A stretch of 64,000 bases of DNA from Escherichia coli (GTDB taxonomy: Bacteria > Pseudomonadota > Gammaproteobacteria > Enterobacterales > Enterobacteriaceae): NCBI RefSeq assembly GCF_002854065.1, contig NZ_CP024147.1; one strand, written 5' to 3'. The position numbers were made by a program. Below, piece after piece: positions 15,001 to 21,000 of this stretch (position 1 is the first letter of the stretch; every line of letters starts with the position of its first letter).

Positions 15001-18000
15001 CCAAGGTACAGCTCCTGAATATTGTCCGGCGATGGCTTAATGACCACCTGGAACTGATAGTAGTGCTGTAAACGGTTGGGGTTTTCGCCGTAGCGACCAT
15101 CGGTCGGGCGACGAGAAGGCTGAACATAAGCAGCCGCCATCGGTTCTGGCCCCAGCGCGCGCAGACAGGTCATTGGGTGAGAGGTTCCCGCGCCGACTTC
15201 CATGTCCAATGGTTGAACAATGGTGCAGCCCTGGCGAGCCCAGTAATCCTGTAAGGTCAGGATCAAGCCCTGGAAGGTCCTGGTATCAAACTTTTGCATA
15301 TTATTTCGTGCTGGATACGTGTGGATTTAAAGGAAGGGATCAGTATACCCGCTGGATGGAAGATATACAGTATGAAACGGGAAAAAGCAGGGCTTAACGC
15401 ATGGAAAGATGCAAAAAATGGCCATCTGCGTCAAAAGAACAGACAAACTGCTCTTTACGGAAGGTATAACCGCGCATTTCATAGCTTCCCTGGAACTGTT
15501 CGAAGGCGGTGACGTCGATTTTTTGCTCGCCGGTGTTATAACGTTTTGCCGCCTGATCCTTGCATAACGCTTCCATATTCAACGAACGCAGAGGATCAAC
15601 CTTTACCCGTTGTGCTTTCTGCACGGGTGACGGTGTAGAACAACCCACTAGCACCATAAGCGCCATTGCCGGAAAGAAAGCGTTCATCATCATTAAATTA
15701 CCGTCTGGTTTGCAGGTGAGTCTTATTATTTATATCGGTATAGTGGCTGATATCTTACGAATTTCCTTAAGCCTCTATAAGCTGTAGTGTTAAAACTCAG
15801 ATTATTCCAGTGCGCCAACTGAATGATTTATCGGTCAGACTTTTTTTAACCAGATACAGAGACACAGATGCAGCCCAAAATTTACTGGATTGATAACCTG
15901 CGAGGGATAGCGTGTTTAATGGTGGTGATGATTCACACCACTACCTGGTATGTGACCAATGCTCATAGTGTTAGCCCCGTCACCTGGGATATCGCCAATG
16001 TTCTGAACTCTGCCTCTCGTGTCAGCGTGCCGCTATTTTTCATGATTTCCGGCTATCTCTTTTTTGGCGAACGCAGCGCCCAGCCGCGCCATTTCTTGCG
16101 TATCGGCTTATGTCTGTTTTTTTATAGCGCAATCGCGCTGCTCTACATTGCACTGTTTACCTCCATTAATGTGGAGTTAGCGCTGAAAAACCTGCTGCAA
16201 AAGCCAGTGTTTTACCACTTATGGTTTTTCTTCGCGATTGCGGTGATTTATCTGGTTTCACCGCTGATTCAGGTGAAGAACGTCGGCGGAAAAATGTTGC
16301 TGGTGCTAATGGTGGTGATTGGTATCATCGCTAACCCAAACACCGTGCCGCAGAAAATCGACGGTTTTGAATGGCTGCCAATTAACTTATATATCAATGG
16401 CGATACTTTTTACTACATTCTGTATGGCATGTTGGGCCGCGCTTTAGGGATGATGGACACACAGCATAAAGCACTGTCGTGGGTGAGCGCCGCACTGTTT
16501 GCGACGGGAGTTTTTATTATCTCTCGCGGGACATTATATGAATTGCAGTGGCGCGGAAATTTTGCCGATACCTGGTATCTTTACTGTGGGCCGATGGTTT
16601 TTATCTGCGCAATCGCGCTATTGACTCTGGTTAAAAACACGCTGGATACGCGTACCATTCGCGGACTTGGCTTAATCTCCCGCCATTCGTTGGGTATATA
16701 CGGATTCCACGCCTTGATTATCCATGCGCTGCGCACCCGGGGAATTGAGCTTAAAAATTGGCCAATACTGGATATTATTTGGATTTTTTGCGCGACGTTG
16801 GCAGCGAGTTTGTTACTTTCTATGCTGGTACAACGAATCGACAGAAACAGATTAGTGAGTTAAGTAAAAGCCCGGTCACATTGGACTGACCGGGCTTACG
16901 TGAGTTATTCGCTGTATTCTTCCTGGGTAACCTGTGTTTCTTTTGGTGGGTTTATTCCGGCATCACGAATATTTTTCTGCACCGCTACTGCACCAAACAA
17001 GCTTAAGAAGAAAGCCAGTCCATAAAAACCTTTTTCGCTGAGTAATAATGTCGCATTCCACAGACCTACCATCAGTAATGCAACAGAGATAATAAAGACA
17101 GTCAGGCAGGTCATATAATAAATGGAAGTGGTCGGTATGCCTTCATACTTGTCCCGAACAGTCTTTTGATAAGACGCCGCAGAAAACAGTCCTAATACCA
17201 GTACGGCAAAATAATATCCTTTTTCATTTAACTGCATCTCTGCATTCCATAGCCCTAACAGATAGGTAACGATACCACCAACGAGAGCTATCCATGACAC
17301 AATACTAAAGGCCGGTGAATAGGTTGATATTAGACTGGCCCCCTGAATCTCCAGACAACCAATATCACTTAAATAAGTGATAGTCTTAATACTAGTTTTT
17401 AGACTAGTCATTGGAGAACAGATGATTGATGTCTTAGGGCCGGAGAAACGCAGACGGCGTACCACACAGGAAAAGATCGCAATTGTTCAGCAGAGCTTTG
17501 AACCGGGGATGACGGTCTCCCTCGTTGCCCGGCAACATGGTGTAGCAGCCAGCCAGTTATTTCTCTGGCGTAAGCAATACCAGGAAGGAAGTCTTACTGC
17601 TGTCGCCGCCGGAGAACAGGTTGTTCCTGCCTCTGAACTTGCTGCCGCCATGAAGCAGATTAAAGAACTCCAGCGCCTGCTCGGCAAGAAAACGATGGAA
17701 AATGAACTCCTCAAAGAAGCCGTTGAATATGGACGGGCAAAAAAGTGGATAGCGCACGCGCCCTTATTGCCCGGGGATGGGGAGTAAGCTTAGTCAGCCG
17801 TTGTCTCCGGGTGTCGCGTGCGCAGTTGCACGTCATTCTCAGACGAACCGATGACTGGATGGATGGCCGCCGCAGTCGTCACACTGATGATACGGATGTG
17901 CTTCTCCGTATACACCATGTTATCGGAGAGCTGCCCACGTATGGTTATCGTCGGGTATGGGCGCTGCTTCGCAGACAGGCAGAACTTGATGGTATGCCTG

Positions 18001-21000
18001 CGATCAATGCCAAACGTGTTTACCGGATCATGCGCCAGAATGCGCTGTTGCTTGAGCGAAAACCTGCTGTACCGCCATCGAAACGGGCACATACAGGCAG
18101 AGTGGCCGTGAAAGAAAGCAATCAGCGATGGTGCTCTGACGGGTTCGAGTTCTGCTGTGATAACGGAGAGAGACTGCGTGTCACGTTCGCGCTGGACTGC
18201 TGTGATCGTGAGGCACTGCACTGGGCGGTCACTACCGGCGGCTTCAACAGTGAAACAGTACAGGACGTCATGCTGGGAGCGGTGGAACGCCGCTTCGGCA
18301 ACGATCTTCCGTCGTCTCCAGTGGAGTGGCTGACGGATAATGGTTCATGCTACCGGGCTAATGAAACACGCCAGTTCGCCCGGATGTTGGGACTTGAACC
18401 GAAGAACACGGCGGTGCGGAGTCCGGAGAGTAACGGAATAGCAGAGAGCTTCGTGAAAACGATAAAGCGTGACTACATCAGTATCATGCCCAAACCAGAC
18501 GGGTTAACGGCAGCAAAGAACCTTGCAGAGGCGTTCGAGCATTATAACGAATGGCATCCGCATAGTGCGCTGGGTTATCGCTCGCCACGGGAATATCTGC
18601 GGCAGCGGGCTTGTAATGGGTTAAGTGATAACAGATGTCTGGAAATATAGGGGCAAATCCAGATATTTTGTTGTCCATCACAGTATTCCTTTCATTCCTG
18701 AATGTGTAAGAGCTTTATATTGCTCATACCGAGCGAAACAAACGCATTTGACCAAACAAGCAGACAAAAAAGGCGATGGGGTAGATCACCATTTCATAAG
18801 CATTGATAGGTGCATTTAAAACACCGATAAACAAGAGACCGATAGTGATTAACGCAACTAACTGGCAAATATGGGTAAAAAAATTATCCAGTTGCCCGCG
18901 TTTTTCTGCGCGAAGATATGCATAGTTGCCAAAAGTTGCTGTCATTAACACGCCAAGAAAATAGCCTTTTCCACTCAACAATGGGCATGAGATCCATAGC
19001 CCAACCAGATAAACCAGCGCCCCGACAACAAATAATAGTTTTGCCACAGTTTTTGAGGTTTTCATAACGATCTCCATATCTACCAGCGATACATTACGAG
19101 TAACCAACGAAAGACAAAACTGAAAAATGCCATTAACAAATGATTTTCAGAATAAATTCATACTAAATATTAATTAATTACTGAGATATATAGATGTGAA
19201 TTATCCCCCACCCGGTCAGGCAGGGGATAACGTTTACGCCATTAATGGCAGAAGTTGCTGATAGAGGCGACGGAACGTTTCTCGTCGTGGCTGATAAGCG
19301 GCATAACGCTGCGCATCTGGTAGATGCGACTGTTCTAACGGTAGCTGCGGCAACAACTCAATGAGCGATTTCTCTGGATTCGCCGCAATCTGCGCCAGCC
19401 TTGCTGCGCCCAGTGCTGGCCCCACATCCCCCCCCGTACGGTAATCGAGCTGCTGACCGCTGATATCCGCCAGCATCTGACGCCAGTACTCACTACGCGC
19501 CCCGCCACCAATCAACGTAACACTTTGCGGTTTAATGCCGCAGGCATGCACGACATCCATGCCATCTGCCAGCGCATAACCCACGCCTTCCAGCACTGCT
19601 CGCGCCAGTTCATTGGGGCCATGTTGATGAGTCAAACCAAAGAAAACCCCCTTCGCCTGGGGATTATTGTGTGGCGTACGCTCGCCGGAAAGATAAGGCA
19701 GAAACCAAACTGGCTCGGCACTTTCATCAGCCTGTTGAGCTGCAGCGATTAAAGCTGGGACATTGCTCAGGCCGGTTAATTTCGCGGCCCAATCCAGACA
19801 TGACGCTGCACTCAGCATTACAGACATTAAATGCCAACGCTGCGGTAGCGCATGGCAAAAGCTGTGTACGGCGCTTTCTGGCTTGCTTAAAAACCCTTCG
19901 CTGACAGCAAAATAGACCCCCGACGTCCCCAGCGATAACATTGCCTGATTAGCATCAACCATTCCCACACCAACCGCACCAGCTGCATTGTCGCCACCGC
20001 CTGCGATAACTGGCACCGCCGCCATACCCCACGCTTTCGCAATTTCAGGTAACAAAGCACCAGTAATTTCGCTGCCTTCGTATAATGCGGGCATCTGGTC
20101 ACGAGATAAGTCGCAAGCCTGCAGCATGACGTCACTCCAGTCACGCTTTGCGACATCCAGCCACATGGTGCCAGCTGCGTCAGACATATCGCTGGCAAAC
20201 TCCCCCGTCATACGCAGACGCAAGTAATCTTTCGGTAATAATACTTTGTCGATTTGACGGAATATCTCCGGCTCATGCCGCTGGATCCATAGCAATTTAG
20301 GCGCAGTAAATCCGGGCATCATCAGATTGCCGGTAATCACTCGTGATTGCGGAACTCTCGCTTCCAGCAAAGTGCACTCTTGCGCACAGCGCCCGTCGTT
20401 CCACAAAATGGCAGGGCGCAATACCCGTTGTTGAGCATCCAGTAAGGTTGCTCCATGCATCTGGCCGGCAATACCCAATGCTTTAACGTCCTGCAGAGAA
20501 TGCTGATCGCCCAGAGCTTTCATTGCGCGATCAGTTGCCTGCCACCACTGTTCCGGGTCTTGTTCCGACCAGAGTGGATGCGGGCGCGAAACGGTCAGCT
20601 TTTCCGTTTGCGAAGCAACCACCTCACCCTGCTCGTTAAGCAAAATAACTTTTACGCCCGAGGTGCCAAGATCTATCCCGATATACATATCGATCGTTCC
20701 TTAAAAAAATGCCCGGTATCGCTACCGATAACCGGGCCAACGGACTGCACAGTTAGCCGTTATTTGTCGAACAGATAATGATTTACCAGATTTTCCAGTT
20801 GCTCCTGGCGACCACTCTGATGCACCGGAGACAAATTATGTTCCTGAGCATATTTGGCTAAATCTGCCAGTGACATTTGGCCTTTCAGGATTTGCTGGCC
20901 TAATTCGCTATTCCAGCCGGAATAACGCTGCGCGATGCGTTTATCCAGCTCGCCATCTTCAATCATGCGCGCTGCAATTTTCAGCGCCAGTGCCATCGTA

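Follow-up and report, generated by a model that had tools for sequence, protein, structure and literature searches.

If the target choice of the insertion sequence IS2 is essentially random, as it is regarded (PMC5009759), why are independent copies found again and again at one short chromosomal junction of Escherichia coli, that between yiaB and yiaA? The question is raised by a 64,000-nucleotide stretch of contig NZ_CP024147.1 (RefSeq assembly GCF_002854065.1; hereafter, the window), in which an IS2 element splits yiaA. As an event, this insertion is ordinary, i.e., a textbook IS2 knockout of a small membrane-protein gene; the novel part appears to be its setting in an apparently unremarked IS2 hot zone at yiaB-yiaA. 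We are highly confident in a joint account in which a recent, intact IS2 occupies codon 6 of yiaA and the recurrence of such insertions stems mainly from a regional target preference of IS2, together with weak selection on yiaAB. Under this account, the preference would be that of the IS2 transpososome, and selection for any one regulatory effect would not lie behind the recurrence.

A complete and recent IS2 in codon 6 of yiaA

IS2 is an IS3-family element that transposes in a copy-out-paste-in manner via a circular intermediate. The window holds only one copy (the element was compared by BLAST with all 64 kb), and this copy and its target are organized as follows.

17331-18661, + strand: complete IS2 element (IS3 family), 1331 bp, delimited by BLAST against the window and reading of the sequence
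17331-17372, + strand: IS2 left inverted repeat (IRL), ~42 bp, from alignment of both ends (TAGACTGGCCCCCTGAATCTCCAGACAACCAATATCACTTAA)
18620-18661, - strand: IS2 right inverted repeat (IRR), ~42 bp, reverse complement TGGATTTGCCCCTATATTTCCAGACATCTGTTATCACTTAA
17422-17787, + strand: orfA (insC), 121 residues, IS2 repressor TnpA (NCBIfam NF006928)
17739-17745, + strand: AAAAAAG (A6G) programmed -1 frameshift motif, from motif reading and translation of the fusion
17745-18650, + strand: orfB (insD), 301 residues, IS2 TnpB with integrase-core catalytic domain (NF006918)
17326-17330, no strand: target-site duplication, left copy GATAT, from flank comparison
18662-18666, no strand: target-site duplication, right copy GATAT, from flank comparison
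18662-18678, - strand: yiaA 5' fragment, nucleotides 1-17 (ATGGACAACAAAATATC, MDNKI plus the TC- of a serine codon)
16905-17330, - strand: yiaA 3' fragment (duplicated ATATC, then nucleotides 18-438 and the stop codon)
16905-17465, - strand: putative in-frame chimeric open reading frame (ORF), 186 residues from GTG, with an internal ATG at 17410

The length of the element and its imperfect terminal repeats are those of IS2 (~1331 bp; ~41-42 bp; TAGACTGG... / TGGATTTG...). It starts TAGACTGGCCCCC and ends GGGGCAAATCCA, and a reading of the boundaries over window positions 16500-19300 gave TAGACTGGCCCCCTGAATCTCC as the first letters and ...ATATAGGGGCAAATCCA as the last. Both reading frames cover their models from end to end (orfA, NF006928, 276 bits against a cutoff of 229, model positions 1-121 of 121; orfB, NF006918, 727.6 bits against a cutoff of 597, positions 1-301 of 301), and the model of IS3-family transposases with a DDE integrase core, NF033516, is matched as well (205 bits; cutoff 160). 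A -1 frameshift at the A6G motif joins the two frames into an OrfAB transposase of ~410 residues, the fusion frame being open to 18650, and RefSeq labels identical IS2 copies "programmed frameshift". By every sequence criterion tested the element is IS2; it shares with the IS2 of E. coli K-12 (IS3 family, IS2 group; insC/insD) the length, repeats, orfA/orfB with A6G and 5-bp duplication, and differs from it in location alone (the yiaA codon 6 site is seen in 0 of 5426 complete E. coli genomes). The copy would appear competent for transposition, judging from its intact frames and ends and its 100% identity to other copies, i.e., over 1331 bp to annotated IS2 in ETEC6, CUVET16-819 and PCN061.

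The disrupted gene lies on the - strand, with its RefSeq-annotated ATG at window position 18678 and an annotated protein of 145 residues that starts MDNKIS. The insertion point follows nucleotide 17, directly behind ATGGACAACAAAATATC and ahead of the A that completes codon 6 (TC/A). The GATAT duplication is perfect (two 5-mers are identical by chance in 1 of 1024 cases), and removal of IS2 and one GATAT in silico restores a 145-residue YiaA that scores 197.8 bits against the NCBIfam YiaA model (cutoff 150). The original prediction, whose range 16905-18681 comprises both yiaA fragments plus IS2, is hence borne out with respect to an IS2 whose ends are complete and whose orfA/orfB pair is intact, the 5-bp duplication, which held on re-inspection of the flanks, and the split of yiaA. 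It had also put the split seven codons into the gene, after MMDNKIS, of which the early position stands and the count does not, since an in-frame GTG one codon upstream of the annotated ATG had been included.

The canonical 145-residue YiaA is no longer makeable. The remaining products would be a 64-residue fusion peptide, since the yiaA 5' end continues into the IRR up to position 18484 (MDNKIS followed by 58 IS2-derived residues), or possibly an N-terminally altered chimera, since the putative 186-residue ORF begins inside the IS2 left end, enters yiaA at codon 7 and keeps all predicted membrane or hydrophobic segments. A promoter scan of 16800-19300 on both strands found no sigma-70-like site, hence none for the chimeric ORF. 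Disruption of the gene, as originally claimed, is therefore confirmed, and a null allele is probable, short of proof because the chimeric ORF persists. Such IS2-yiaA chimeras are called "YiaA" by the NCBI pipeline in CP61_Sichuan, SX4 and TUM strains, RefSeq naming them "inner membrane protein YiaA" (WP_086589615.1, WP_258146677.1 and WP_426472938.1; the chimeras span 2225-2674, 2375-2806 and 2225-2662 of the extracted regions L003, L012 and L004, respectively). That is, as a result of automatic annotation, gene-presence tables conceal some of the IS2 disruptions of yiaA.

The closest complete genome is that of E. coli strain 100416 (human stool, Gambia), which is collinear with the window, with ~16 single-nucleotide polymorphisms over 47 kb and flank identities of 100% (4332 bp) and 99.975% (4069 bp). 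Comparison with an IS-free strain had been named beforehand as a check, and 100416 provides it: its site is empty, with a single GATAT, no IS2 and an intact 145-residue yiaA product. Neither junction is present as one contiguous match in the 5426 complete E. coli genomes, and the 30-nucleotide left junction had no match in the metagenome contig collection. Because the near-identical 100416 has an empty site and the exact junction is absent from the 5426 genomes, a recent and lineage-specific insertion, the recency having been part of the original prediction, is well supported. Relative to 100416 the window has three additional IS1 copies (in lpfB and at yiaY), so the source lineage has recently gained several insertion sequences.

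Recurrent IS2 insertion at yiaB-yiaA

Insertions at the locus were collected with a query that joins 300 bp of yiaA to 300 bp of the IS2 left end ("+" orientation) and with a mirrored query for the opposite orientation; one representative per span class was then extracted, and its IS2 ends and duplications were mapped. The queries returned 46 and 20 records, respectively, 66 in total. All mapped cases are full-length elements (18 of 1331 bp and one of 1327 bp) flanked by a perfect 5-bp duplication, and they represent 17 distinct combinations of site and orientation, or 18 with the window's own, within ~0.7 kb. In window-equivalent positions, the duplications start at 17097, 17261 (both orientations), 17262, 17265, 17275, 17287, 17322, 17326 (the window), 17327, 18680 (both orientations), 18748, 18772, 18776, 18845, 19058 and 19101. 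The orientation is that of the window in 11 of the 18 combinations and opposite in 7; a strong orientation bias was rejected, the first five same-orientation cases being a product of query design and the 7 opposite sites emerging with the mirrored query.

The elements at the locus belong to seven or more IS2 sequence variants (95.6-100% identity) and are set in flanks of several alleles, and the targets at 17261 and 18680 were each used in both orientations by different variants. Given the differing variants and flank alleles, and the same targets being used in both orientations, these events are independent, and they amount to at least 18 independent IS2-family insertions at yiaB-yiaA among sequenced E. 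coli. Most of them (14 of 18 combinations) fall in one short zone.

17261-18780, no strand: recurrent IS2 target zone, ~185 bp without IS2, from insertion mapping

The zone consists of the last 19 codons of yiaB, a 45-bp spacer and codons 1-28 of yiaA, and the insertions within it cluster in three patches of ~30 bp each. Events in the yiaA coding sequence are concentrated at its 5' end, 11 of 12 lying in the first 70 of 438 bp (first 16%), for which the binomial probability is ~2e-8 under the null expectation that any disrupting position would serve. Close to the site used in the window, other insertions occur 4 bp and 1 bp away in independent finished genomes. Of the 5426 genomes, 5306 have an unbroken central 500 bp at the locus; it is split in 95 and lacking in 23.

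The excess is large relative to both the collection and the neighbouring DNA. With ~18,000 chromosomal IS2 left ends in the collection, an even spread would give ~4 copies in the 1.1 kb monitored at yiaAB, where the actual number is 66, or 37 once the clonal TUM laboratory series is set aside (a crude bound). As control, 12 anchors taken from elsewhere in the window were combined, in both orientations, with the IS2 left end to monitor ~56-60 kb; these control loci yielded 28 records (complete list), corresponding to ~19 events. The resulting density of ~0.34 events/kb compares with ~15/kb at yiaAB, i.e., a ~45-fold enrichment, and counted by records the enrichment is at least ~65-fold. For IS1, 37 records were found within ~±1 kb of yiaAB (e.g., BE311 and EC0880B) and at least 60 at five control anchors (~18 kb), giving an enrichment of at most ~5.5-fold, which is an upper bound since the control count is itself a minimum. 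That is, the locus combines many independent insertions in a short region with an excess over neighbouring DNA, and this excess is specific to IS2, the IS1 figure being an upper bound.

A few additional observations concern the distribution of these elements. After yiaAB, the yiaF-glyS interval is the richest IS2 target of the 64-kb neighbourhood, with ~9 of the control events (IS2-family insertions in other E. coli) in its glyS-hokA-cspA part (yiaF-yiaG-cspA-hokA-glyS, ~10000-12300), some of them beside IS150, and ~4 control events lie in the yibI-mtlA spacer. Inverted IS2 pairs 1-3 kb apart are common in E. coli, including in the DH10B/MC1061 laboratory lineage, next to a phage-type integrase gene. 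IS1 is associated with secondary rearrangements of the locus in 2018-02-2CC (extracted region 2248-4489), where a yiaA fragment is linked via an IS1A to the aldB region, next to an IS2-carrying yiaB, and in the laboratory-derived isolate EC0880B (extracted region 2806-4376), where IS1 joins yiaA to xylR and yiaB and xylBAFGH are deleted.

Target preference versus selection

An IS2-specific regional preference, at a locus where disruption is tolerated, is favoured by the evidence over plain selection for gene loss, because the excess is larger for IS2, the insertions cluster toward the 5' end, 5-bp targets are re-used and some of the insertions need not be inactivating. Alternatively, it might be that inactivation of yiaA/yiaB is beneficial or fully neutral and that IS2 insertions are merely retained at a site that is not preferred. 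Several observations are in line with adaptive gene loss of this kind: IS1 disrupts the locus too (at least 37 records), the uninterrupted central 500 bp is missing in 120 of 5426 genomes, IS2 sits at the locus in two laboratory lineages (CV601 and the TUM series, the latter with 29 genomes), and both IS2 orientations are present, as simple knockouts predict. However, selection or tolerance should act alike on both elements, and the IS2 excess (at least ~65-fold by records, ~45-fold by events) is far above that of IS1 at the same locus (at most ~5.5-fold), which speaks against this alternative. So does the confinement of 11 of 12 yiaA coding-sequence events to the first 16% of the gene, as well as the re-use of identical 5-bp targets (17261 and 18680) in both orientations by different IS2 variants. 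Further, some sites are not obviously inactivating, as 18748 is 8 codons short of the yiaB stop codon and 19101 is upstream of the gene, and the locus is kept uninterrupted in 5306 of 5426 genomes. We therefore regard adaptive gene loss as unlikely, although it is the strongest of the alternatives.

Selection could instead act on expression, with outward transcription from IS2, or a hybrid promoter, altering expression of yiaB, truncated yiaA, wecH or xylB. The IS2 right end has an outward-facing -35-like hexamer and forms hybrid promoters; in the window, by reading of the sequence, the flank after the IRR starts GATATT, a weak -10-like hexamer, and an in-frame chimeric yiaA ORF is present. 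Nevertheless, the locus insertions are split 11 versus 7 by orientation and lie upstream, inside and downstream of yiaB, so that no gene is consistently downstream; + strand DNA past the IRR is antisense to yiaB and xylBA; and the promoter scan described above returned no site. Taken together, these data make regulatory selection very improbable. Least credible of all is an assembly artefact, in which a collapsed-repeat IS2 was misplaced in a truly intact yiaA. IS elements do often cause misassembly, and none of the databases searched has a second instance of the junction. Yet the sequence is exact at either junction, and the single GATAT of the sister genome is perfectly duplicated over 5 bp, a signature of transposition that a misjoin does not make; equivalent insertions also occur 4 bp and 1 bp away in independent finished genomes.

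Search for the target determinant

With respect to what might direct IS2 to this region, we lean, if only slightly, toward the ~185-bp yiaB-3'/yiaA-5' junction being a mechanistic hot spot of IS2-family integration, of at least ~45-fold, that is determined locally by a structural feature of the DNA or by a nucleoprotein feature. Such a hot spot would place the cause outside both a sequence motif and selection, a view to which we are inclined to the same small degree.

It is important to note that several points weigh against the account favoured here. Aligning the 18 oriented targets with ±15 bp gave no informative position and no motif, and when both IS2 ends were scanned by local alignment along all 64 kb, the top scores included no yiaAB site. 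AT-richness alone was rejected as an explanation: yiaAB has 40.8% GC, yet more AT-rich parts of the window, of which 56.4-57.7 kb, 1.5-2.6 kb and the xylA-xylF spacer are the most AT-rich, show few or no IS2 hits. Further, the counts derive from natural and laboratory isolates, in which retention (selection) and insertion rate are confounded, and the control-locus events were grouped by hit spans, without base-level mapping. The proposed consequences, i.e., that YiaA function would be lost and that yiaB should be largely unaffected, are likewise predictions. Finally, a mutation-accumulation study of K-12 recorded 71 new IS2 insertions and reported neither IS2 hotspots at the genome scale nor a motif in the target duplications (PMC5009759). 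The latter result is compatible with a hot zone at yiaAB, because at the estimated enrichment less than 1 of the 71 insertions would be expected there.

Other candidates for the determinant did not hold. A likeness of the target to the IS2 ends, seen by eye between the yiaA start (GGACAACAAAATATCAAC) and the inner IRL (AGACAACCAATATCAC), was rejected as chance, and no REP-like (repetitive extragenic palindromic) palindrome is visible in the target zone on reading of the sequence. The window sequence that best matches the IS2 right end is found elsewhere, at ~63285-63315 downstream of the adhesin gene ehaG (GGATTGCCCTTTTCTTTACCAGACATCT; score 29 versus a background mean of 11.8), and is either a relic IS2 end or chance; it was rejected as an IS2 attractor, as the ehaG-associated IS2 of NT1N25 sits in a different place.

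Comparison with known systems

No paper that connects IS2 to yiaA or yiaB turned up in the literature search. The closest parallel might come from bacteriophage P1, in which Sengstag and Arber (1983-1987) reportedly described an IS2 "hot target" region. That region reportedly took many independent IS2 insertions at differing positions over ~1-2 kb with no consensus target, and yiaAB is alike in these respects. The yiaAB zone differs in being chromosomal and deduced from natural and laboratory genomes, as opposed to the selection experiment in P1.

Non-random target choice is shared with other IS3-family elements, since IS1397 and ISKpn1 target REP/BIME (bacterial interspersed mosaic element) palindromes and IS911 inserts next to sequences resembling its inverted repeats. 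However, the yiaAB insertions spread over ~185 bp and not over one defined structure, with no REP-like palindrome in sight, and, in contrast to IS911, the yiaAB targets are no more like the IS2 ends than is the background of the window. IS2 itself is known for hybrid promoters and orientation effects at the gal operon and ampC. The element is the same here, and its right end abuts the weak -10-like GATATT; unlike at gal and ampC, the window offers no suitably oriented gene downstream, the scan detected no promoter-like site, and the locus insertions run in both orientations.

Neighbouring genes and insertion sequences

The gene next to the insertion is the yiaA paralogue, found directly beside the IS2 right end as originally noted.

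18724-19065, - strand: yiaB, 113 residues, yiaA paralogue (NF008492, 170.4 bits; cutoff 130)

Between its stop codon and the IS2 right end lie 62 bp. In agreement with the RefSeq annotation, yiaB is upstream of yiaA and convergent with IS2 orfAB, so polarity on yiaB is impossible. An effect of IS2 on yiaB, which the original prediction had considered, is speculative, antisense read-through or an altered 3' end being the sole conceivable routes, and the gene should be largely unaffected given its upstream position and convergence with the transposase gene. A terminator-like hairpin with a T-run (GGTGATCTACCCCATCGCC TTTTTTGTCT) lies within the yiaB coding region (18772-18790, - strand); it coincides with one of the insertion patches, including the sites 18772 and 18776 of other strains, possibly by coincidence.

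As for the three IS1 copies mentioned above, one (768 bp, 461-1228) lies inside the fimbrial chaperone gene lpfB with a 9-bp duplication (CGGTCAGCG) and is not in 100416. The other two, at 44168-44935 and 45021-45788, are in direct orientation 85 bp apart and match the lpfB copy at 100% and 98.8% identity; this pair (44168-45788) replaces 285 bp of 100416 and deletes the 5' end of yiaY, leaving a residual yiaY ORF at 43155-44156. Nearby, aldB is a pseudogene with an internal stop in the 100416 annotation (extracted region 7241-8779), and its window counterpart, 41452-43128, is a long open frame.

Implications

For the source strain, yiaA::IS2 is a usable lineage marker with little functional consequence, since YiaA has, to our knowledge, no known role. 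More broadly, recurrent yiaAB::IS2 alleles call for caution against reading them as shared ancestry or adaptive convergence. If the hot zone is true, yiaB-yiaA would be a natural equivalent, on the chromosome, of the IS2 hot region of P1, which is itself unexplained, and would lend itself well to work on target choice by the copy-out-paste-in transpososomes of the IS3 family. If experimentally confirmed, it would also offer a defined DNA fragment with which to test what directs IS2 integration.

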